A DNA stretch of 63,750 bases, counting the filler. It is 4 parts of 4 records of this genome, joined end to end, with 100 filler letters (N's around TTAATTAATTAA, not from the genome) between each part and the next. Parts side by side here need not be neighbours in the genome. Positions count along the whole stretch, not along the records: positions 46,242 to 58,455 come from SRR20825019_940; 3 more parts are not named here. One strand, written 5' to 3'. This document shows, one piece after another, positions 31,341-58,555 of this stretch (its first letter is position 1; each line of letters opens with the position of its first letter). The position numbers and the translations under genes are program-made. The notes beneath the pieces are model-generated. The model was not told where the DNA came from. It searched no databases and saw nothing but the letters and a program-made list of their open reading frames with translations.

Positions 31341-31440
31341 NNNNNNNNNNNNNNNNNNNNNNNNNNNNNNNNNNNNNNNNNNNNTTAATTAATTAANNNN
31401 NNNNNNNNNNNNNNNNNNNNNNNNNNNNNNNNNNNNNNNN
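31341..31440. other. Artificial contig linker
   Basis: N run with TTAATTAATTAA (stops in all six frames) at 31385-31396. Confidence 0.99.
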
Positions 31441-46141: not shown

Positions 46142-46241
46142 NNNNNNNNNNNNNNNNNNNNNNNNNNNNNNNNNNNNNNNNNNNNTTAATTAATTAANNN
46201 NNNNNNNNNNNNNNNNNNNNNNNNNNNNNNNNNNNNNNNNN
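46142..46241. other. Artificial contig linker
   Basis: N run with TTAATTAATTAA at 46186-46197. Confidence 0.99.
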
Positions 46242-46999
46242 GTGCGGATCTCGTGGCTCATATTGGCCAGAAATTCACTCTTGGCCTGTGAGGCCGCATG
46301 GGCGGCCTGGGTGGCGGCTTCAAGATCCTGGGTGCGGGCGGCAACAAGATGCTCCAGGTTTTCATTGGTGGCGCGCGTTTCGTTTAACGCCTTCTCGCTG
46401 CGCCGATGGGCCGACTGGATCAGGCTGATCATCGTCAACCCCAGGGCGAAGACAAATCCGAGGGACATAAACCCGTCCCGAGCCAGAGTGTCGGCGGCAT
46501 AGTCAGCTGAGCCTGCCGCCGGGTGGGCCTGGAGAATCCACTGATAGAACCCAATGTGTCCGAAGATGATGATCGCAAAGACGGTGTAGGCGATACGACG
46601 GCTTGCGAAGATCGAGGCCATGAGCACAAACACGAGATCGTAGGCAAAGAGCTGGATTCCCGTGCCGAGGGGTTCGACCATGGTGCCCGGGTATAACAGC
46701 ACCAGATGCACCGGCACGACCAGACCGAGCACGAGGGTGTTGCCCGCCGCATCGATGCGTCCGCGCCGCACCAGGATGAATGAGGCGTAGGCTGCCGCCG
46801 TCAGCACAAGATTCATCAAAAGCCGGATGCCCATCTCCGGAGATTGCACCCAGATCAACTTCATGACGTTGATCGGCATAAACCCGAGCACGAGAAGATT
46901 CAGGGACATCAGGAGCTTCGCCATCACCCGCACGAAATACGGTTGATTGTGATAAGTGGTATCCAACCGTGAAAACCAAGTGGTGAAGGGACGAATCAT
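46242..46999 (-). CDS. Membrane sensor histidine kinase, N-terminal part, cut by the contig end
   Basis: Several TM helices, coiled coil, AKSEFLANMSHEIR H-box typical of hybrid kinases. Confidence 0.9.
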
Positions 47000-47176
47000 G
47001 AACCGCGCGAAATTAGTTACTAAGCCCTATGCAGCGATAGTAAATCACCCGACTAGGGAATATACCCTGCGTGCAGAAGTAAACTGTTTACAGAAGGAAG
47101 GATGGCTACACGCGAAGTATAAATTTTGATAGCAAGCGACCGCTTCAAAAAGGCTCAGCGATTTGGGAAAACGGGA

Positions 47177-47266
47177 TCACTTTGCAGACAGTAGCCCAAT
47201 CCGCCGAAAGCGGTAGAGGAGACGATTGCGATTCTTGTTGGTCAGCTCGTGCTCCCAGATGCGAAA
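47177..47266 (-). pseudogene. vsr: 3' remnant of a Vsr very-short-patch-repair endonuclease
   Basis: Manual translation FRIWEHELTNKNRNRLLYRFRRIGLLSAK*; RIWEHEL is the Vsr C-terminal motif; in-frame TGA a few codons upstream and no start codon. Confidence 0.65.
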
Positions 47267-47423
47267 GAGAAAAGTTCAAAATCAATCGAACAGAAGAATA
47301 GAACTCATGTGGATCGTCTGATGGAAGTGAGCTTAAGATTCCTCCCAGCGATAGTTAAGCAGCTGATTACAATAAAGAATTTAAGCGTCTTTATATTTGA
47401 ATTTTTATTGTTAGGTCTTGCTC

Positions 47424-48221
47424 ATGGCTACCGGTAAGCGTTGGACCCAAGCAGAACTTTTGATCGCACTTAACCTCTACCATAAACTGTCGTTTGGTCA
47501 GATGCATGGCCGTCATCCAGCCATTGTTGCCTTGGCTCAAAAGATGGGACGTGGAGCCAACAGTCTCGCAATGAAACTCAGTAATCTCGCCTCATTAGAT
47601 CCTGCTTTGAAAATTCGAGGAATCAAAGGACTGACGGGAGCCAGCGCGCTAGATCGTGCGGTATGGAAGGAGTTTCATGACAATCCTGAAGAAGCTATCC
47701 CAGCCAGCGAACAAGCCTTTCGTGCTATTTTTGAGGCGGATGAATCGAAGGAGGTTGATGTCCTTCCCCAAGAAGGGGTTCGAGTGAGAGCAGTTCCCAC
47801 TGGTCCGACGACAATTCGAACCACAGTAAAAATCCGCCGAGGCCAGGAGTATTTCCGTCAAGCGGTGCTAAACAATTTTGGAGGAATGTGCGGAGTCACG
47901 GGGTTGTCAGTGCGGGAGCTTCTTATCGCTTCACATATCTTGCCTTGGGGGAGCCACGAATCCGAAAGATTAAATGTCCGTAATGGGCTCTGTCTTTCAA
48001 GATTACACGATGCTGCCTTTGATACCGGACTAATTACATTTGATGAAAATTTGCGGCTTAGATTGTCCCAGAAATTGAAATCCGCACTTCCTCAGAAAAC
48101 AGTAAACGATAATTTTTCGTTTTATGAAGGTGAGCCATTAGTTCTTCCCGAGGATTCATTCCCTCCTGATTCTAAGCTCTTAGCTGTTCATAATTCGAAG
48201 ATCTTCGTAGGGGATGTTTGA
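47424..48221 (+). CDS. HNH endonuclease, putative restriction/defence nuclease
   Basis: N-terminal WTQAELLIALNLY...MKLSNLASLDP domain; RRGQEYFR, CGVTG, ASHILPW, NGLCLSRLHDAAFDTG. Confidence 0.9.
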   Translation: MATGKRWTQAELLIALNLYHKLSFGQMHGRHPAIVALAQKMGRGANSLAMKLSNLASLDPALKIRGIKGLTGASALDRAVWKEFHDNPEEAIPASEQAFRAIFEADESKEVDVLPQEGVRVRAVPTGPTTIRTTVKIRRGQEYFRQAVLNNFGGMCGVTGLSVRELLIASHILPWGSHESERLNVRNGLCLSRLHDAAFDTGLITFDENLRLRLSQKLKSALPQKTVNDNFSFYEGEPLVLPEDSFPPDSKLLAVHNSKIFVGDV

Positions 48222-48314
48222 ATAATTTAGATGCGCCGAAATTGCTGCAGTCCGAGTCTGACTATCAAAAAGTTCAAATTATGGGAGCGAACTATTGAGT
48301 AATATCGTCAGGAA

Positions 48315-48656
48315 TCATTTTGGCAGCCCCAGACGCGTAGCAATTCGACGACAATCATGGCTGTCGAAATCTCGTAGATTTTCGGGAAGTAAAATAGACA
48401 AGCATTCGGTGCCGAATTTATCCTCAAGCAGGTAAGGCCAAGTGACGTCTAAATCGGTGAAATCGATATGCTGACATGTCCAATTTTCGAAAGTCATCGC
48501 GATGTTCACAACGACCCTCATGAGATTATCCATCCCACGATAAGCGTCACTTAGATCTAGAGATTTGTCATTTTCTTCGCATTTGAGGCATGCCTGCCAC
48601 AATGATGAGGAAGCGGCGAATAGGGCCGCTGGATCGGCAGTTTTCGTGGATTTCAT
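48315..48656 (-). CDS. Hypothetical protein
   Basis: 113-aa ORF with globular composition (WPYLLEDKFG); no family recognised. Confidence 0.7.
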   Translation of the reverse strand: MKSTKTADPAALFAASSSLWQACLKCEENDKSLDLSDAYRGMDNLMRVVVNIAMTFENWTCQHIDFTDLDVTWPYLLEDKFGTECLSILLPENLRDFDSHDCRRIATRLGLPK

Positions 48657-48754
48657 GTATTGCCATACTATCCAATAATACGAAGCGCTTCCACGGACGA
48701 TGAGTCACATCCCAAGGAAAATGGGTCGGATCTTTATCTAGATTCCCGTGCTCG

Positions 48755-49357
48755 TTAAGAGTCTGGGCTTCGTTCCTTATGATGTTCTTTCATCATGGCC
48801 TTGAGCACACCTTGACCTTTGAGCGAGCCACGGGCCTCTTTTAGGCAAGAGCGCAACAGTTCCAATTCGACGCCACGACGGGCACGGAAGCGACGCTGAC
48901 GTTCGGCGTTTTTTTGGCGCTTGTGTTCGTCGGAAACGGGTGGACGGCCGGCGCGCAGGCGGATCGGCAGATCAACCTTGGGTGTGAAAAGGTTGCGATT
49001 TTTGAAGGGAGGCGGGCTGTCGCGCAGGGCGAGGAGGCGTTCGTCAGGAGCTTGCACGCTGAACCATGGCTCTGCCAAGTGGCGCCTTGAATCATGGGTC
49101 CATGCAGGGACTGACAATTTGGCCTGATTAGCCAAGTGTTCGGCATAGGCTGCGAGCCAGGCGTCGGCCGCGTGACCTTCAGGGAATCGATCAGCAATCA
49201 ACGTGGGTTCCTCATGAATGCTTTGCGCGAGGGCCGGCCGCTGCCGGATGGCCCGGATCGTGTGCAACCAATCCTGAAGTTCCAAACCAAACGTGCGCTG
49301 ATCGTCGGCACGATCAGCAACTTCGGCGAGGGTTTGAGGGCGTAGATTCAGGTTCAT
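48755..49357 (-). CDS. Putative antitoxin / partner of the DUF6036-like nucleotidyltransferase, with C-terminal basic region
   Basis: DAWLAAYAEHLA...PAW...EPWF...SPPPFKNRNLF core; ATGA overlap with the NTase stop; RAGRP and KRQKNAERQRRFRARR tail. Confidence 0.7.
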   Translation of the reverse strand: MNLNLRPQTLAEVADRADDQRTFGLELQDWLHTIRAIRQRPALAQSIHEEPTLIADRFPEGHAADAWLAAYAEHLANQAKLSVPAWTHDSRRHLAEPWFSVQAPDERLLALRDSPPPFKNRNLFTPKVDLPIRLRAGRPPVSDEHKRQKNAERQRRFRARRGVELELLRSCLKEARGSLKGQGVLKAMMKEHHKERSPDS

Positions 49358-49922
49358 TGATCGGAGACTTTAGGAAGGGAAATTTCAGCGAGAATACGCG
49401 CGACCATCTTTTGGGCGAATTCGTGGGGAATTTCTCCGGGGAAAAATTGTTCGTAAATTTCGTCCACCGCTTCGTTGCCAGACGGTTTGATTTTGTGGAG
49501 GAGAAATCGGATGTCAGGTTCGTCTCCCTTGTATCCGAACATCGGGGGACGGGCGGCTTTCAGTTTGAGTGCGAGGAGGTAGTTTGCGGTGGGGATGGAG
49601 ATACTTAAACTCGGTTCGAATTCCTTGGAGGGATAGGGGCGGCGCTGATCGAAAGGGGAAAGGAACTGCTGCACGTTGCCGTTGAGCCAGTCTTCGGGGA
49701 GATCCTGTTCGTGGGCGACTTTCGCCACCAGCCTGGCACCGGTTTCTGCGGGTTTGATGATCGCATCTACATCGCGGGTCGTGTCGCGTGAGCCGTAAAC
49801 GAGGGTGAAGACAGCTCCCCCGTAGAGGGCTACTTCGAGCACAATGCCTCGGCCGTTGCCAATTCGGAGAGGCGACGGAGGGCTGCGCGGAGGCGTGCGG
49901 GACTGAGATTTTCGTATGGAAT
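49354..49922 (-). pseudogene. DUF6036/AbiEii-like nucleotidyltransferase (putative toxin), frameshifted near the 5' end
   Basis: YGGA...TRDVD, WLN, LLALKLKAAR...D..DIRFL in 49354-49842; N-terminal helix ENLSPARLRAALRRLSELATAE lies in another frame; one G missing at about 49847. Confidence 0.75.
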
Positions 49923-49930
49923 AAATAAAA

Positions 49931-49957
49931 CGTTACGTAATGAATAATAATTTACAA
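49931..49957 (-). promoter_or_regulatory. Putative promoter with overlapping palindromic operator for the NTase-partner operon
   Basis: Minus strand TTGTAA-N16-TAACGT; palindrome TTACGTAA at 49933-49940 within CGTTACGTAATG. Confidence 0.5.
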
Positions 49958-50160
49958 GTCGTGAAACGCATCTGAATAAGTCAACTAATAGTTGACGTGC
50001 AGATTCGGGCGAGGATAGGGGAGATGGATTTGCCTGCAAAGCAGAGTGGGGCCGAATTGGGCAGCGCGCAGCTGACGGTTGATCGCTTTCAACCTACAGC
50101 TGACCGGGTTAACCCCTGAATGCTTACCGCTTAGGACTTAATGCTGCACGCTCTCGTGTG

Positions 50161-51093
50161 CTAACACACGCGGCCGCGTTTGATGGCGGCACTATTGGCC
50201 ATGGGATTGTCACCGACCCAGCGTTCATCGACGGGTTGGCTGGCGCGTTGGTAGCGGGTATCGGTGGAGATGCGCATGCGATCCGTCAAATTATCGAGAC
50301 CACCGTGAATCATGGTCATGCCAAAGGTGATGAAATCGCCCATCTTCCATTCGGGAGCGGTCAGCCAGCGTCCGCCGATTTTCTCGCGGAGCGTGGCGGG
50401 GTTTTTGCTGAGATAGCCGGGGTGGCTCCAGCCGACATCGACTTTGAGTTTTTCGAGATCGCGGGGGCGGTTGCTGCAATAGGCATCCACATCGACTTCG
50501 AGGTAGTTCTTGATGCGGTCGGATTTCTGATGCGAATCCTCAAGCAGCATGACGCCACCGGTTTCGAGCGAGGTGTCACCGTAAGGGACCCAGCAGGTGT
50601 AGAGTTGGTGGGTGCCGCGACCCATGTAAACGATATCGCAATGGGGCGTGGAGCCCTGGCCGCGACTCATGGCGCGAAACCAGGTGTAGTCGAAATGGCG
50701 CACGGGTTCTCCGAAGAGATTGGTGTAAAACTCGATCAGTTCCGGACCGTAAACGACGCGCTCGACTTCCTTATTATTGCGGGCGGGTTCGCGGTTGAAG
50801 TTGCTGGTCTCGTTGGGATGAGCGACCGCTTCGATGCTGGGGTAAGCGGGATCGAGCTTGCCGGCTTGGGCGAGGCGATCGCAGACAGAGGCCCGGGCGG
50901 CGTGCACGAGATCGCGATCGAAGAAGCCGGGAAGATAAAGGTAGCCGTCGTCTTCGAGCCGCTGGCGCAGCACTTCGGGTTGATCGACATAGTCGGCGGA
51001 ACTGCGCACGAAACCAAAGGCCTCGTCGGACATATCGAGGGCATGGCCGCAGGAAGAGAGGGCGTGAGTAGCTACCGGGGCGGGGAGGGGCAT
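50161..51093 (-). CDS. Phytanoyl-CoA dioxygenase (PhyH) family Fe(II)/2OG oxygenase
   Basis: DGYLYLPG, HCD (HxD), WVPYGD...GG, IHG..DN...RISTDTRYQ. Confidence 0.9.
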   Translation of the reverse strand: MPLPAPVATHALSSCGHALDMSDEAFGFVRSSADYVDQPEVLRQRLEDDGYLYLPGFFDRDLVHAARASVCDRLAQAGKLDPAYPSIEAVAHPNETSNFNREPARNNKEVERVVYGPELIEFYTNLFGEPVRHFDYTWFRAMSRGQGSTPHCDIVYMGRGTHQLYTCWVPYGDTSLETGGVMLLEDSHQKSDRIKNYLEVDVDAYCSNRPRDLEKLKVDVGWSHPGYLSKNPATLREKIGGRWLTAPEWKMGDFITFGMTMIHGGLDNLTDRMRISTDTRYQRASQPVDERWVGDNPMANSAAIKRGRVC

Positions 51094-51238
51094 GGGAAAT
51101 GGCTTAAGGGAGAAAACGGTGGCTGGAAAGCCAGAATCACATGGAGTAAATCGAGTGGATGAGAATGACCAGTTTTGTCGGTTGGATTTATTCTCAAGGG
51201 AGTTTGCCGTGGCCCGGTTCAGGGGGCAGTCGGAGCTG

Positions 51239-51751
51239 ATGAACGGGATTGAAACCGAGCGATTGAAACTCCGGCGTTTCCGGGAAACCGATGCAGGGTT
51301 CGTTCGCGAGTTGGTAAACGATGCGGGTTGGCTGCGCTCTATCGGAGATCGTGGTATCCGGACCAATGAGCAGGCGCTTACGTATATTGGGTAGCTGAAG
51401 ACCGTGTGGGAGCAATACGGATACGGTGCCTGCTAGATTGAAGTGAAGGCATCGGGCTTGCCTGTCGGGATCGCGGGTTTGTTTCGGCGGGAAGGACTGA
51501 ACGATCCGGATATCGGGTTTGCGCTGTTGGCTGAATATTGCGGGGCAGGCTACGCGCCGGAAGCCTCTGCCGCGGTGATGGAATTTGCCCGGGAGGGGGT
51601 GGATTTATCGCGGATCGCCGCGGTCACCGTGCCGGAGAATCAGGCCTCGATTCGCCTGTTGGAAAAATTGGGACTCGAATTTGTGCAGAAGGTCAGATTG
51701 CCGGGAGGCGTGGAGGATCTGGCGGTTTATGCGATCGAGCGTCTGTCTTAA
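51239..51751 (+). pseudogene. RimJ/RimL-type GNAT acetyltransferase interrupted by two in-frame TAG codons
   Basis: IETERLKLR...IGDRG...YIG*LKTVWEQYGYGAC*IEVK...DIGFALL...GAGYAPEA...NQASIRLLEKLG; TAG at 51392-51394 and 51434-51436 in the same frame. Confidence 0.85.
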
Positions 51752-51814
51752 AAGCACGGTATCTCCGCATGTTTACGTATATTCGGGTGCAGCGAAAAAC
51801 CGTATGATGATGGC

Positions 51815-52429
51815 ATGTCTGCAATCACGACAGAACAGGAGAGTCTGCCGCCGCATCTGGACGCGGAATCACAATACGCGACGCGTAACAACGCGTTGAC
51901 GCCTGCGGTTGTGTGGAAATTGCGGAGCGGAAGTTTACTGCGGGAAGACGGTAAGGGTCCGCCCCGCGAGGTGGGGCTTGAGGACATTCAATCGGTGCAG
52001 CTGGAATATGTGCCCACGCGACCTGAGCCGAATCGCTATCGTTGCCGGATCACGTTGGCCAATGCCACCCGGTTGGAGATCTTCAATCGCACTTACCGTG
52101 GCGTCTATGATTTTGCCGATACGAGTGCGGGGTATGTTGAATTTGTGCGAAACCTCCACACGGCCTTGGCGCAGCACTCGCCGCGGTGCCGCTTCGTGGC
52201 CGGAGCCTCGGCGACGAGCTATGCGGTCAACCTCGGCGTGTTGATGCTCGTCTGCGCGGTGGTCCTGGGAGCGTTGGCGTTTTTCGTATTGGCGGGAATG
52301 CTCTGGGTCGTGTTGATCAAAATTCTGCTGATCCTCTTTTATCTGCCCACGGCTTTCAAATGGGCGCGCCGTAATAAGCCGCGGGCCTATCCGCCCCACG
52401 CGATTCCCGAGAATGTGCTGCCGCGTTGA
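51815..52429 (+). CDS. Hypothetical membrane protein
   Basis: Soluble beta-rich N-terminus, two C-terminal TM helices, ends NKPRAYPPHAIPENVLP. Confidence 0.75.
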   Translation: MSAITTEQESLPPHLDAESQYATRNNALTPAVVWKLRSGSLLREDGKGPPREVGLEDIQSVQLEYVPTRPEPNRYRCRITLANATRLEIFNRTYRGVYDFADTSAGYVEFVRNLHTALAQHSPRCRFVAGASATSYAVNLGVLMLVCAVVLGALAFFVLAGMLWVVLIKILLILFYLPTAFKWARRNKPRAYPPHAIPENVLPR

Positions 52430-52446
52430 TTCTAGCGCGCGACGTT

Positions 52447-53214
52447 CTATCGGCGTCGATATGAGGTCAGGGTAAGTAGCGTGAGGCCGAGCGCCAAAAG
52501 CAGAGCGGTCGAAGGTTCGGGCACGGCGGCCCACTCGATGGAGTTGTGCAGCATCAAAGCGTAGTGGGTGTTGCCCAGTTCGTTGGGACCCACGACGGTC
52601 GAGATTTGCAGCACCCGGCCCGCACCGACTTCCCAACCGACCACTCCGGCACCGTTGGCTCCACCGGAACTCGAATAAAAAACCGTGGCCCCGGATTTCG
52701 CGGTGAACATGGATTCCACGCCAGCGAAACTGTCAGTCGAGAAGGCAAAGGCCGTGGGCAGGCCGTCATTGATGACCGGATCGGCCGTGACCTGGGTGTA
52801 ACTGAGGGTTGATCCGCCGGTGTATTGAGTGGTGGCGACGACGGGCAGGATGTCGCTGAGATTGGAGAACAATCCCCGGGCGTTCATCCAGTTGGTCCAC
52901 TCGCTGGTAATCAGCCCGCCCCCATTACTGACGAAATCCTTCAATGCGGTTTGCGCGGTGAGCGGCATGTCCACGCTACTGCTCCAATTGTTGTTGGGGA
53001 AAAGCATCACGACATCGATCCCCGCCAGTTCGGAGGCATTGAATGAGCTATATGCACTGCCGATGGTCACGGAGTAACCGGCGTTCTGCAGCGAGGTCTG
53101 AGTCGTGTTGTTGAGCGAAGTCGAGCCCGTGGAGAGTAACAGCACCGTCTGTCCGTGCGCGCTCCATGGAAGGAGCACGAGCAACGTGAAGGTAAAGCAG
53201 GCCCAAGATTTCAC
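52447..53214 (-). CDS. PEP-CTERM sorted surface protein
   Basis: Signal peptide; VPEPST, TM helix and RRR at the C-terminus; ALKDFVSNGGGLI suggests a class I glutamine amidotransferase-like fold. Confidence 0.9.
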   Translation of the reverse strand: MKSWACFTFTLLVLLPWSAHGQTVLLLSTGSTSLNNTTQTSLQNAGYSVTIGSAYSSFNASELAGIDVVMLFPNNNWSSSVDMPLTAQTALKDFVSNGGGLITSEWTNWMNARGLFSNLSDILPVVATTQYTGGSTLSYTQVTADPVINDGLPTAFAFSTDSFAGVESMFTAKSGATVFYSSSGGANGAGVVGWEVGAGRVLQISTVVGPNELGNTHYALMLHNSIEWAAVPEPSTALLLALGLTLLTLTSYRRR

Positions 53215-53275
53215 AGTGCTGTGCCTAGGGCGTGGGAGGATTTACGCAAGTCGATTACAAGACTGATGGAAACAC

Positions 53276-53307
53276 AAAGCCCTGCGCCGGTGAGGGCTCG
53301 GGGCTTT
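53276..53307 (-). terminator. Degenerate hairpin/terminator, copy of 54183-54214
   Basis: AAAGCCCTGCGCCGGTGAGGGCTCGGGGCTTT. Confidence 0.65.
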
Positions 53308-53330
53308 ATTAACGGTGAAGCTTTCTTTGA

Positions 53331-53816
53331 TCAGTCAGAAGGCGAGGTCCAATGAAGTTGTAGGGATCGACCCGATTCCAGAAGGGTTTTCAAACTGCTG
53401 ATGATCCCCGGCCATCCCATACTTACTCCGTGGATGATCTGACTGTCGGCGGGGAAATCTTCATGAATCACGGTGAATTTCACCGCGTCGCCGGTGGGGC
53501 CGATCGGCGGTTGCTGCGCTGCTTCGATCAGGTAGGTGACGCGGGAGGCCGGTTCGTGACGGTCCTCAACGCGAAAGGTATAAACGAGTTTATGAGGCGG
53601 TTCGCTCGCGATGACTTCCCCGTCCCAATCAAGCGTGCCATCCTCTTGGTCGAAGCTTTCAACTTTTGAGCCGGGTTTCCAGTCGGAGCAGACTTTGTTA
53701 CCGAACCAGAAGGCGGGGATGGTTGTCTCAGTGGTGAGCGTTGCCCAGAGCTTTTCCGGGGTGGTGTGAATGTAGGTCACGTAGACGAACTGAGGTTTGG
53801 AATCAGAGGTATTCAT
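53331..53816 (-). CDS. SRPBCC (AHSA1/START-like) domain protein
   Basis: YVTYIHTTPEKLW..LT, SDWKPGS, EPPHKLVYTF, GWP.I.SSLKTLLE; ATGA overlap with the ArsR stop. Confidence 0.92.
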   Translation of the reverse strand: MNTSDSKPQFVYVTYIHTTPEKLWATLTTETTIPAFWFGNKVCSDWKPGSKVESFDQEDGTLDWDGEVIASEPPHKLVYTFRVEDRHEPASRVTYLIEAAQQPPIGPTGDAVKFTVIHEDFPADSQIIHGVSMGWPGIISSLKTLLESGRSLQLHWTSPSD

Positions 53817-54133
53817 GTTTTGTTCCTTGGGTTTTCGAGTGCTGATTTGAGATCGCTGATGGCTTGTAGACCGGAGGCTTCGAAGGACTTGATCCACCGG
53901 CGTGAAATGTCGTGGATTGGGACAGGATTGAGGTAGTGGAGCTTTTCCCGACCGCGGAAGATTGAGGTGACCAGATTCGCTGATTGGAGAATGGCGAGGT
54001 GTTTGGTGACGGCTTGGCGGCTCATTTCCAGCGGAGCGGAGAGTTGTGTAAGCGTCTGTCCGTTGTCTTCCCGCAGACGGTCCAAAATCCGTCGTCGATT
54101 GGCATCGGCCAGTGCCTTGAACACCTCATCCAT
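53813..54133 (-). CDS. ArsR/SmtB family transcriptional regulator
   Basis: MDEVFKALADANRRRIL...MSRQAVTKHLAIL...GREKLHYLN; likely start is ATG 54133, not the longer ORF-track start. Confidence 0.93.
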   Translation of the reverse strand: MDEVFKALADANRRRILDRLREDNGQTLTQLSAPLEMSRQAVTKHLAILQSANLVTSIFRGREKLHYLNPVPIHDISRRWIKSFEASGLQAISDLKSALENPRNKT

Positions 54134-54144
54134 GCGAAGAATAA

Positions 54145-54169
54145 ATGCAACTATATGGTTGCATGTCAA
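54145..54169 (-). promoter_or_regulatory. ArsR autoregulatory operator with -35 box
   Basis: ATGCAAC-N6-GTTGCAT inverted repeat (54145-54164) abutting TTGACA (minus strand, 54164-54169). Confidence 0.75.
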
Positions 54170-54179
54170 GGGCGAGCGC

Positions 54180-54214
54180 AAAAAAGCCCCGTGCCGGTGA
54201 GGGCACGGGGCTTT
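54180..54214 (-). terminator. Intrinsic terminator of ppdK
   Basis: Stem AAAGCCCCGTGCC / GGCACGGGGCTTT with a T run on the minus strand. Confidence 0.88.
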
Positions 54215-54245
54215 GAAAAAATGGCGGTGTAAAGACCGCTCCGAC

Positions 54246-57029
<2,784 letters not shown>

Positions 57030-57201
57030 GTGCGTTGTTTTGGTTAGTGAAAGTATTAGATGCGTGGTGACGCAAAGGCCCATGGAATTAGCAAACGATG
57101 GACACGACTGTCAACGGTGGAGGCGATGGGGAGGGTTTGAGAACTTGAAATCACGGGAATCGCGGAGTTGCGGATAGGTGGTGAGCGACTACCAACAAGT
57201 A

Positions 57202-58401
57202 ATGCGATCCGGATCATGGCAGGGTAAACTTGTGGGGGGAGCGGGTTTTTTGTTCATCCTCGGAATAGGATTTGCGGCGAACACGCCGGCGCAGATCGCG
57301 GCGTGGAGGGAGGCTGCTTCTTCGGGTGACGTGAAGGCGCAATGGAATCTGGCCAGGGCTTACGAAAATCGTGATGGGGTGGAGAGCGATCCGGGCCGTG
57401 AACTCACCTGGAAGCACGGTGCGGCGGAGGGAGGGGTGGCTGAAGCGCAATACTCGCTCGCCGCAAATTACTTCCAGGCTGAGCTGGGACTCTCACGGGA
57501 TGTGCGCACTGCGGTGATGTGGCTACGTCGCGCCGCCCTGCAGGGGCATATTGAGGCGAGTTACCGGTTGGGAGAAATCCATTTTCATGGGTTGGGCGGA
57601 GTGAAGGTTAATTATGCCCAGGTGGCCGCTGCGATGAAGAAACCGGCGCAGGAGAATTATCGCGATGCGGGGATGTATTTGGGTTACCTGAAGTTTACCG
57701 GTCTCGGGATGGCGAAAAATCAGGAGGCAGGCGCGGCGCTCCTGCGGGCTTCGGCGAAGGCGGGTCATGAGCAGGCGGAGGAATTGATGTGGGAGGCATA
57801 CGAGGCCGGGACACTTGAACCCATCGATGAACAGGAAAAGCTGCGTTGGATTGAAGCGGGGAGTCGCCAAAACGATCCCCGCGCGAAAGAGCGCCTCGGG
57901 CTGGCGTTGTTTGTGGGGCAGGGTATCGCACAGGACCGCGGTCGGGCACGGCCGTTGCTTTGGGAGGCGGCCCAACGTGGATCGGTGCCGGCGGCGACCG
58001 CACTCGCTCAGGAAATCGGAGAGCAACTCTCAACCGAATCGGCCGTGCTGAGTGAGCAACAACGGCAGGCGTTGATTTTGGAATACAATCGGATGGCCCA
58101 TCTGATCGCGGTTTCCGGAGGAGTGGCGGGCATGGAAACATACATTCGGGCGATGACGCATTTGCGGCCGATGGAAAAACTGGTGGCGAGGATGGATAAC
58201 CGGTTGAGTGTCGGGGAAGAACTCATCGAAGCAATGGCCTGGGGGCGCATCTATCATGCGGAGAACGGAGGCGATGCGGCGGTGCTCGCCTGGTCGGATG
58301 CGGCCGAGCTCTGGTTGATGAAGCATCCACCGGCGGTATTGAAAGTGCGTCAAAAGATGACGGAGTTAATCGAGAGCATCGCTTCGGCCCGAAGAAAATA
58401 A
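57202..58401 (+). CDS. SEL1-like repeat exported protein
   Basis: Signal/TM region; repeats such as AASSGDVKAQWNLA, AAEGGVAEAQYSLA, AALQGHIEASYRLG. Confidence 0.85.
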   Translation: MRSGSWQGKLVGGAGFLFILGIGFAANTPAQIAAWREAASSGDVKAQWNLARAYENRDGVESDPGRELTWKHGAAEGGVAEAQYSLAANYFQAELGLSRDVRTAVMWLRRAALQGHIEASYRLGEIHFHGLGGVKVNYAQVAAAMKKPAQENYRDAGMYLGYLKFTGLGMAKNQEAGAALLRASAKAGHEQAEELMWEAYEAGTLEPIDEQEKLRWIEAGSRQNDPRAKERLGLALFVGQGIAQDRGRARPLLWEAAQRGSVPAATALAQEIGEQLSTESAVLSEQQRQALILEYNRMAHLIAVSGGVAGMETYIRAMTHLRPMEKLVARMDNRLSVGEELIEAMAWGRIYHAENGGDAAVLAWSDAAELWLMKHPPAVLKVRQKMTELIESIASARRK

Positions 58402-58455
58402 ACGATTTCGAGGTAAGAGATCGCACTTCCGTTTTGACGCAATCCGCGCAGCATG

Positions 58456-58555
58456 NNNNNNNNNNNNNNNNNNNNNNNNNNNNNNNNNNNNNNNNNNNNT
58501 TAATTAATTAANNNNNNNNNNNNNNNNNNNNNNNNNNNNNNNNNNNNNNNNNNNN
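58456..58555. other. Artificial contig linker
   Basis: N run with TTAATTAATTAA at 58500-58511. Confidence 0.99.

Follow-up and report, generated by a model that had tools for sequence, protein, structure and literature searches.

The window analyzed here is a 63,750-nucleotide stretch of DNA made up of four joined segments, and the segment under study (46242-58455; 12.2 kb, ∼55% GC; record SRR20825019_940) holds a two-gene module. On the minus strand, a gene for a small nucleotidyltransferase-like (NTase-like) protein is followed by an overlapping gene for a partner protein, and a short palindrome lies ahead of the pair. The partner ends in a basic tail that resembles the DNA-contacting region of fungal basic leucine zipper (bZIP) proteins of the Pap1/Yap type, and it is the relation between this tail and the palindrome that concerns us. 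The features of the module are as follows.

48755-49357, minus strand: partner protein, 200 aa, proposed antitoxin and autorepressor; 585 relatives, no named family
48983-49357, minus strand: helical N-terminal domain of the partner (N-domain), residues 1-125, from the AlphaFold2 (AF2) model
48941-48949, minus strand: GRP, AT-hook-like core, G137 R138 P139; present in 78/78 tails
48875-48922, minus strand: basic region K146-R161, KRQKNAERQRRFRARR; N, R, Q, R and F invariant
48854-48865, minus strand: mini-zipper L165-L168 (ELEL-L); Leu at +15 and +18
49354-49922, minus strand: NTase-like gene, broken; aligned to loci L003, L007, L002 and L014
49933-49940, no strand: core palindrome TTACGTAA; single site in the window
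49924-49949, no strand: 26-bp operator footprint centred on the dyad, expected from the relatives' consensus
49952-49957, minus strand: −35-like hexamer TTGTAA, putative promoter element; its TTG is conserved in the 69-row alignment
49930-49935, minus strand: putative −10-like hexamer TAACGT over the gene-proximal half-site, placed by spacing and half-site conservation

The two proteins of the module

One genome per species was scanned for coding relatives of the partner, giving 108, and the best 80 of these 108 loci were used (520,116 b of DNA in all). Nearly all of the 80 are titled Opitutaceae, Opitutales or Verrucomicrobiota. The set was assembled via the partner and is thus biased for counts of NTase loss versus partner loss. 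The promoter alignment has 69 rows, namely the 68 loci with a full NTase match plus the window, and is anchored on the palindromic site; tail counts refer to 78 tails, numbered from the conserved Asn (N150 in the window).

Relatives of the partner number 585 at an expectation value (E) of E<=0.001, mostly of 170-180 aa, and the named ones are Verrucomicrobiota. It matched no Pfam or NCBIfam family at E<=1 and no PADLOC or PHROG family. An earlier note on this DNA, made from the letters alone, had seen no evident N-terminal helix-turn-helix (HTH) in the partner, and we likewise detect none, since Pfam and NCBIfam were empty at that threshold. Neither database gave a HEPN hit in the partner, and no HEPN structure was among the Foldseek matches. 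The AF2 model, built from 118 sequences, has a predicted local distance difference test score (pLDDT) of 92.3. In this model, the N-domain contains helices at residues 10-16, 20-36, 40-48, 61-78 and 104-113, and a single long helix (143-195) carries the tail after a flexible GRP linker (pLDDT about 72). A structure search with the model returned no relative in the PDB (best E 1.3) or in the viral BFVD (best E 1.1), and the fold of the N-domain is therefore left unnamed; an atlas search with the N-domain (best score 0.85) reached unnamed clusters only and gave no lead. The homodimer prediction of the partner, run without controls, scored 0.00; it carries no verdict and is used neither way. When longer or fused forms of the partner were sought, a single 372-aa open reading frame (ORF) emerged (P0315), in which the N-terminal half of the NTase is joined to the full partner; it appears to represent an internal deletion, not a true fusion.

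The earlier note had further described a DUF6036-like NTase, joined to a 200-aa partner through an ATGA overlap and in need of repair. Reading the minus strand confirms the coupling, as the NTase TGA sits inside the partner ATG. The gene also carries two lesions, as judged by alignment with four close loci: ATT stands in place of the former start codon (49920-49922), and a single G has been lost at 49847-49848. What remains open is an ORF of 162 aa (49354-49842), which runs from a GTG at 49842 to the TGA. Intact relatives have 180-188 aa and the N-terminus MPYE, and a start codon is present in 67/68 full-NTase loci (ATG in 49, GTG in 17, TTG in 1), the remaining one (L001) having lost it. The 162-aa form lacks helix 1 of the predicted fold of the intact homolog from L003. 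The AF2 model of this homolog (pLDDT 92.8) shows a Pol-beta-type NTase fold, with weak matches in the PDB (Pol lambda/mu, E about 5e-3; the fungal NTase-like 5uvd, template-modeling score 0.46); neither MenT nor AbiEii was among the 50 PDB matches listed. The DUF6036 label holds at a sub-threshold level only. Four of five intact homologs show a resemblance to DUF6036 (PF19502) of E 0.024-0.24 and 11.6-14.9 bits versus a gathering cut-off of 23.6 bits, and the window ORF itself gave no DUF6036 hit. Resemblance to AbiEii is also sub-threshold, both with the PADLOC model (E 0.0021) and with the Pfam model (E 0.026 in one of the five intact homologs), as is a match to DUF2204. The NTase family comprises 535 proteins, in which every named entry is called "hypothetical".

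The basic tail and the promoter palindrome

The tail of the partner in the window reads RAGRPPVSDEHKRQKNAERQRRFRARRGVELELLRS. Its NAERQRRFR motif lies at 48884-48910 on the minus strand, and N150, R158 and L168 keep the bZIP spacing N-x7-R-x9-L; both the position and the spacing agree with the earlier note. That note had named poor conservation of the tail among homologs as a result that would count against its proposal. Among the relatives, the tail proved to be the best-conserved part of the partner, above the N-domain, and all 78 tails examined carry the motif. By position, the residues found are as follows.

-13 to -11: G-R-P, 78/78 (11-13 residues before Asn)
-4: K or R, 73/78
-3: R, 76/78
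0: N, 78/78
+1: A, 77/78
+3: R, 78/78
+4: Q, 78/78
+5: R, 74/78
+6: R, 78/78
+7: F, 78/78
+8: R 58, Q 19, H 1, of 78
+11: R, 76/78
+15: L, 60/78
+18 (the R-x9-L position): L, 68/78

In most of the 78 tails the GRP is flanked by an R two residues before and a K two residues after. No Pfam AT_hook hit was obtained with the whole protein or the 78 tails; from its sequence, the GRP may contact the minor groove of the AT-rich outer arms described below. The chain ends a median of 19 residues past +8, in line with a caveat of the earlier note that the zipper is short. Pfam searches of the 78 tails at E<=10 gave scattered matches at chance level. The sole hit of the PDB sequence searches, PA1624 (E 1.4), aligns to the window-specific C-terminal extension and was rejected.

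The closest likeness in mode of working is to the basic region of Pap1 of S. pombe and Yap1-8 of S. cerevisiae. As described in PMC7261193, the Pap1 signature is RxxxNxxAQxxFR, in which N86, A89, Q90, F93 and R94 contact the TTAC half-site, R82 touches a flanking G, and Q85, R87, R91 and R96 touch phosphates. The partner tail shares N-x3-Q-x2-F-R with this signature, and thus four of the five base-contacting residues; the matches at N, Q, F and R and the replacement of A by R are just those that the earlier note had pointed out. In addition, the +5 Arg of the partner corresponds to Pap1 R91, the K/R-R pair sits at the region of Pap1 R82, and the N-x7-R-x9-L spacing is kept. The Pap1-DNA structure is 1GD2, as cited in PMC7261193 and PMC8450079, and the simulations of Yap1 reported in the latter have Phe reading the outer TT, Gln the TA step and Arg favoring the central CG. 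For Yap8, a segment N-terminal of the basic region is described as meeting AT-rich flanks (PMC7261193); the GRP segment of the partner likewise lies N-terminal to its basic region and would face AT-rich flanks. The site itself also agrees, as TTACGTAA with the flanking G (G-TTACGTAA-C) adjoins the partner's operon and the signature Arg goes with a central CG. Unlike the fungal proteins, the partner is bacterial and without a real leucine zipper, its helix is a C-terminal tail behind a 125-residue helical domain, and its operator reaches 24-26 bp.

The palindrome lies at 49933-49940, where the earlier note had placed it, and that note had cautioned that one 8-mer can arise by chance. For the window alone the caution is apt, with 1 hit versus 1.10 expected and at least one in 70/100 shuffles. 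The comparison of loci gives a different result: TTACGTAA occurs 38 times in the DNA of the 80 loci versus about 2.2 times expected by composition. Thirty-six of the 38 copies share a single offset, which places the end of the 8-mer 10-12 nt ahead of the NTase start, and these are the exact copies in 36/68 full-NTase loci; one further copy lies directly before an orphan partner (L008) and one elsewhere. Thus, the 8-mer draws its significance from its conservation at a fixed offset across loci, and the conserved palindrome upstream of homologs on which the earlier note had made its proposal depend is present at that offset in the 69 aligned promoters.

In the relatives, TTACGTAA forms the core of a 24-26 bp palindrome, ATAAAACGTTACGTAACGTTTTAT, and the consensus of the 69 promoters is cTTG-(14 nt)-ATAaAaCGTTACGTAACGtTTTATc. 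The two arms are symmetric at a mean of 10.6/13 positions, and 10/69 rows are symmetric at 13/13, i.e., are perfect 26-bp palindromes. Arm positions 1, 2, 4, 5 and 6 are symmetric in 61-68/69 rows and position 3 in 60/69; the AT-rich outer arms, which flank the core on both sides, are symmetric too. The core is TTACGTAA in 37 of the 69 promoters, TTAGCTAA in 12, CTACGTAA in 4, TCACGTAA in 4, TTATGTAA in 3, TTACGTAT in 2 and TGACGTAA in 2, and there are five singletons. In the window, the site reads CATTACGTAACG; its core and gene-proximal arm (CGTTTTAT) fit the consensus, and its distal arm, ...ATTATTCA, is not symmetric and is off consensus.

The conserved TTG stands 17 nt before the core 8-mer, and the spacer between TTGTAA and TAACGT measures 16 nt. 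The earlier note had assigned a putative −10 box under the palindrome. This holds to the extent that the putative TAACGT overlaps the site; a consensus promoter scan did not call the proposed promoter, and its two calls fall inside coding sequence. With TAACGT 7 nt ahead of the former start codon, the mRNA would have little or no leader.

In one clade, the residue at +8 and the centre of the operator have changed together. A tree built from the N-domain, from which the tail columns were excluded, gathers the proteins with Gln or His at +8, save one, in a single 20-row clade (Shimodaira-Hasegawa-like approximate likelihood ratio test, SH-aLRT, 99). Fourteen members of this clade have a visible promoter, with TTAGCTAA in 12, TTATATAA in 1 and TTAGATAA in 1. 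TTAGCTAA represents a symmetric change of the centre from CG to GC, which keeps the dyad and alters both strands at once, and the residue changed in the clade corresponds to the one that reads the centre in the Pap1/Yap code. Specifically, Arg occurs with a CG centre in 50 cases and Gln or His with a non-CG centre in 14; the off-diagonal cases are three of Arg with non-CG (all TTATGTAA, a one-arm change) and one of Gln with CG (L027). The G-flanked site CGTTACGTAACG is present in 30/53 Arg-class promoters, and the core TTACGTAA in 35/53.

That the palindrome instead works as an RNA hairpin at the 5' end of the transcript is hardly credible. Any perfect palindrome folds if transcribed, but the window region reaches only -2.1 kcal/mol (z +1.11), with 176/200 shuffles folding as well, and there was no Rfam match. 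Moreover, the sequence is conserved without compensatory stem changes, the sole paired change falling at the centre, which would be the loop. It is this combination of a weak fold, no Rfam match and conservation of sequence rather than pairing that makes an RNA role so unlikely, and the TTG 17 nt upstream implies that most of the palindrome precedes the likely transcription start.

The tail module is also found outside the partner family. A profile of the 78 tails retrieved 74 representatives at E<=0.001 among 1.84 billion, and architectures were read from 21 of the 74, several of which are members or fragments of the partner family. In P0190 the motif lies inside a protein matching phage replication-initiation families (phrog_2509, E 1e-18), and in P0187 at the N-terminus of an endonuclease VII-like protein. 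The small proteins P0183, P0184 and P0191 bear it N-terminally, and P0161, P0192 and P0194 have two tandem copies in one chain. Small motif proteins belong to the PHROGs of unknown function 10506, 9651 and 23279, and no Pfam family covers the GRP plus NAERQRRFR module in these other proteins. By sequence, then, the tail appears to be a portable module that is borne by other DNA-acting proteins as well.

Pairing and decay across loci

Directly upstream of the partner, 68 of the 80 loci have a full NTase match, 6 a partial one and 6 none, so that 74 keep NTase sequence, and the NTase gene comes first in all 68 full-match loci and in the window. Sixty-four of the 68 NTases are intact. The four broken ones have lost the start (L001), have a stop at codon 3 (L011) or are shortened to 133 aa (L012) and 101 aa (L075). 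Four of the partial matches are cut by contig ends, and two (L019 and L073) are truncated inside the contig; those with no NTase are L008, L032, L037, L040, L060 and L068. In 48 of the 64 intact pairs the two genes share 4 nt, and in another 12 they are 5-6 nt apart. The partner and NTase families are also similar in size (585 vs 535 proteins).

When the NTase is lost, the operator goes with the partner, as seen in L037 and L008. In L037 (290-345) the NTase ORF is exactly deleted, and TTGATT, the palindrome and the start context TTTATCCATG are joined straight to the ATG of the partner, MQARPTTLAEVA... A similar, independent exact loss is found in L008 (3960-4310), whose partner is interrupted by an in-frame TAA. 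In L060, the promoter, half of the operator and a 5' remnant of the NTase are still present. A dead or missing NTase is recorded for the window, for 12 loci and for P0315, against a broken partner in L008 only. This asymmetry suggests that the partner is harmless alone and that the NTase is dispensable or costly, as in toxin-antitoxin pairs.

Neighboring genes show no conservation around the module across the 80 loci. Thus, what lies in the window is a two-gene module of Opitutaceae (Verrucomicrobiota) with a toxin-antitoxin-like build, and it is self-contained, since the window's other neighbor genes recur in only 3 loci.

An HNH endonuclease gene (267 aa, 47418-48221, plus strand) converges on the module from downstream. 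Its product matches PADLOC PDLC04132 (E 6e-85) and Pfam HNH_2 (E 6e-11) and has a sub-threshold match to a phosphorothioate-DNA restriction enzyme; a homolog with 48% identity stands beside the module only in L025 among the 80 loci. Directly downstream of the partner is a 113-aa ORF (48315-48656, minus strand) with no Pfam, NCBIfam or PADLOC family and no homolog in the 80 loci. Upstream of the module lies an unrelated gene for a PhyH-type dioxygenase (50161-51366, minus strand; Pfam PhyH, E 8e-10), which is absent from the 80 loci. An ORF at 46190-46999 (minus strand) has membrane-like segments and runs into an N run, the gene being cut at the contig end; near its end we noted by eye what we take to be a histidine-kinase-like phosphoacceptor motif (…SHEIR). 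The window is a concatenation of contigs, probably taken from a bin, and of its segments only 46242-58455 bears on the module. The four segments have GC fractions of about 0.33, 0.42, 0.55 and 0.48 and are parted by the following N runs.

31341-31440: N run
46142-46241: N run
58456-58555: N run

Proposed mechanism, precedents and meaning

On balance, we favor the reading that this is a toxin-antitoxin-like module in which the partner probably acts as a repressor through a bZIP-like basic helix at the palindrome. In the mechanism we propose, the module would consist of a small Pol-beta-type NTase and an overlapping partner of ∼175-200 aa that serves as autorepressor. The tail, composed of the AT-hook-like GRP, the basic helix K/R-R-x2-N-A-x-R-Q-R-R-F-R and one or two Leu heptads, would lie in the major groove of the palindrome centred on TTACGTAA, between the −35-like TTG and the start codon. 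Two tails would read the two TTAC half-sites in Pap1/Yap style: the outer bases would be contacted by Asn, Gln and Phe, the central CG by the last Arg, and the AT-rich outer arms by the GRP segments. Pairing of the tails would be supplied by the N-domain or the NTase, and the bound dimer would block RNA polymerase. The NTase would be dispensable and probably toxic, with the partner serving as its antidote; in the window, the NTase would already be dead, leaving the partner and the core operator. What we observe directly is the anatomy of the module, its conservation, the constant placement of the site, the motif match and the co-switch of a single clade; that the tail binds and how it docks, dimer formation, the two promoter hexamers, toxicity and neutralization are deduced from these.

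A number of our results weigh against this mechanism. With respect to the DNA-reading head, the base-contacting Ala of Pap1 is an invariant Arg in the partner, and a different register could therefore apply. No profile method connects the tail to bZIP: the bZIP_1 model matched only 2/78 tails (best E 0.19), and PDB sequence searches with the tail and with the 78-tail profile found no bZIP at E<=10. For this reason, we term the tail bZIP-like and not a member of that family. The zipper spans at most about two heptads, with only +15 and +18 consistently Leu, and is too short to pair the helices, so that dimerization must come from elsewhere. Furthermore, L027 represents a second, independent Arg-to-Gln change, and it has kept TTACGTAA. 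The co-switch of residue and operator is thus one evolutionary event, and an independent-pairs sign test on 2 pairs has no power, since of the two Arg-to-Gln changes just one was accompanied by a change in the operator.

Five points (the Arg at the Ala position, the missing profile similarity, L027, the very short zipper and, in addition, a palindrome of 24-26 bp that exceeds a bZIP site) would fit a partner that regulates the operon at the palindrome but is not bZIP-like. For example, the N-domain could be the sequence reader, and the GRP-basic tail would be a non-specific DNA clamp or would bind and neutralize the NTase or its nucleic-acid substrate. We consider this unlikely. The N-domain has no detectable DNA-binding family or fold and is less conserved than the tail, whereas the tail module alone heads unrelated DNA-acting proteins. 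Moreover, chance would have to account at once for the four residue matches, the N-R-L spacing and an identical 8-mer flanked by the same G.

Other points concern the site. The distal half-site varies most, and the proximal half, GTAACGT, is almost fixed; the proximal half-site and the T-tract may in part be kept as promoter or start context, and the near fixation of the proximal half fits its doubling as the −10-like TAACGT. No operator was found in the 700 nt upstream of the partners in L032, L040 and L068, or before the partners in L073 and L019 in the region searched. One could hold, then, that the sequence is conserved as part of a promoter, as context for a leaderless start or ribosome entry, or because a host-wide regulator binds it, and that the tail resembles Pap1 by chance. 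In favor of this, the proximal half, which is the better conserved one, occupies together with TTTTAT the place expected of a −10 element and start context, and the window by itself has no more copies of the 8-mer than chance predicts. A promoter, however, needs no dyad symmetry, yet the arms are symmetric including the outer AT, and in one clade the centre has gone from CG to GC symmetrically. The site also stays with the partner after deletion of the NTase, and only 1/38 copies of TTACGTAA in 520 kb lies away from the module promoter, which argues against a host-wide regulator. We therefore regard this explanation as very improbable.

With respect to the roles of the two proteins, the NTase passes no family cut-off, and the assignment of toxin and antitoxin draws on the decay asymmetry in a sample that was collected via the partner and is biased. 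Five NTase entries of 157-161 aa (P0201, P0206, P0211, P0218 and P0223; 72-84% identity to the window ORF) begin at MLEVALYGG, as does the window's truncated ORF. Either the lesion is common to a lineage or the upstream part was missed by gene callers; given five database proteins with this start, the short form might be maintained rather than dead. Gene order differs as well: the NTase gene comes first here, and in AbiE and MenAT the order is reversed, with the antitoxin gene upstream. In other respects the module is like AbiE and MenAT, being a small two-gene unit of a Pol-beta-type NTase and a partner that, in our proposal, is autoregulating; its NTase is weakly AbiEii-like at the catalytic motif and the KLxA region. 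It differs in that its NTase is shorter (about 182-188 aa) and below every family cut-off, and in that the partner is without the winged HTH of AbiEi, a COG5340 domain or a MazE-like domain. DUF1814 toxins such as MenT3 are reported to block tRNA charging (PMC7450476).

The module might then be no toxin-antitoxin system at all, the NTase being an ordinary enzyme or a defence or stress effector and the partner its transcription factor or sensor; or the roles might be reversed, as in MntA-HepT. An NTase gene in first position, followed by a gene for an all-helical partner, is indeed the arrangement of MNT-HEPN modules, the NTase is under every toxin-family cut-off, and both the window and L025 have an HNH restriction-like gene close by. 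We nevertheless find these alternatives rather unlikely. In 12/13 loci (window included) that have a broken or missing NTase, the partner is intact; a toxic partner would be lethal there, and survival of the partner without the NTase runs counter to what is expected of a HEPN toxin. Nor does the partner show a HEPN family or fold. Small size, the 4-nt overlap, a variable neighborhood and repeated decay are, moreover, typical of toxin-antitoxin modules.

Returning to the bZIP-like repressor that we favor, the nearest precedent in bacteria is RptR, a small repressor from a defence island of E. coli, which its authors call bZIP-like (PMC12255303). As described there, the RptR dimer sets two splayed helices astride one major groove at the short palindrome TAGCTA. 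RptR is an 11-kDa four-helix protein that contacts DNA via Thr57-Lys61 and binds direct repeats of its site; it is associated with type I restriction systems in Gammaproteobacteria and autoregulates an operon that includes a toxin-antitoxin system (PMC12255303). RptR and the partner are alike as bacterial repressors (the partner by proposal) without a long zipper, and TAGCTA is the centre of the TTAGCTAA operators in the Gln clade. The N/Q/F/R signature and the GRP of the partner go unmentioned for RptR in the text available. The PDB searches with the tail showed no relation to RptR, although the presence of its entry, 9R2Z, in the searched copy is unverified. Archaeal aRelB has been listed as a possible leucine-zipper antitoxin, in a review footnote citing Takagi et al. 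2005 (PMC4803016). It differs in its RelE-type toxin partner, and neither an operator match nor a bZIP signature is mentioned in the part of the review available; it is set apart here by description only. Our literature searches found no publication on the partner family or the tail motif.

Antitoxins and small bacterial repressors are known to read DNA by HTH, ribbon-helix-helix, AbrB-type and Phd/YefM-type domains (PMC4803016), and bZIP basic regions are regarded as eukaryotic, a view cited in the RptR paper being that they arose in the last eukaryotic common ancestor (PMC12255303). A DNA-reading head of the present kind appears to be undescribed for antitoxins, and the autoregulated toxin-antitoxin-like operon would otherwise be of known type. 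Tentatively, and in our estimate with the balance of probability somewhat against it, bacteria and phages might carry a portable bZIP-type head, consisting of the GRP hook, the N-A-x-R-Q-R-R-F-R helix and a mini-zipper, which uses the same residue-to-base code as Pap1/Yap and is paired via a partner domain or by tandem duplication. In such a code, Asn, Gln and Phe would read TTA, Arg would go with a central CG and Gln with a central GC.

If true, either the bZIP basic region would have been invented here independently, or a domain whose origin is placed with that of the eukaryotes would have a relative among prokaryotes. The partner would also represent a new class of antitoxin DNA-binding domain. 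It would bear on the bZIP recognition code in the absence of a zipper, on a second origin of that code and on dimerization outsourced to another domain, and it would place a natural specificity switch (Arg with CG, Gln with GC) beside the known site of the signature. For the Opitutaceae, the module provides a first handle on two unannotated protein families.

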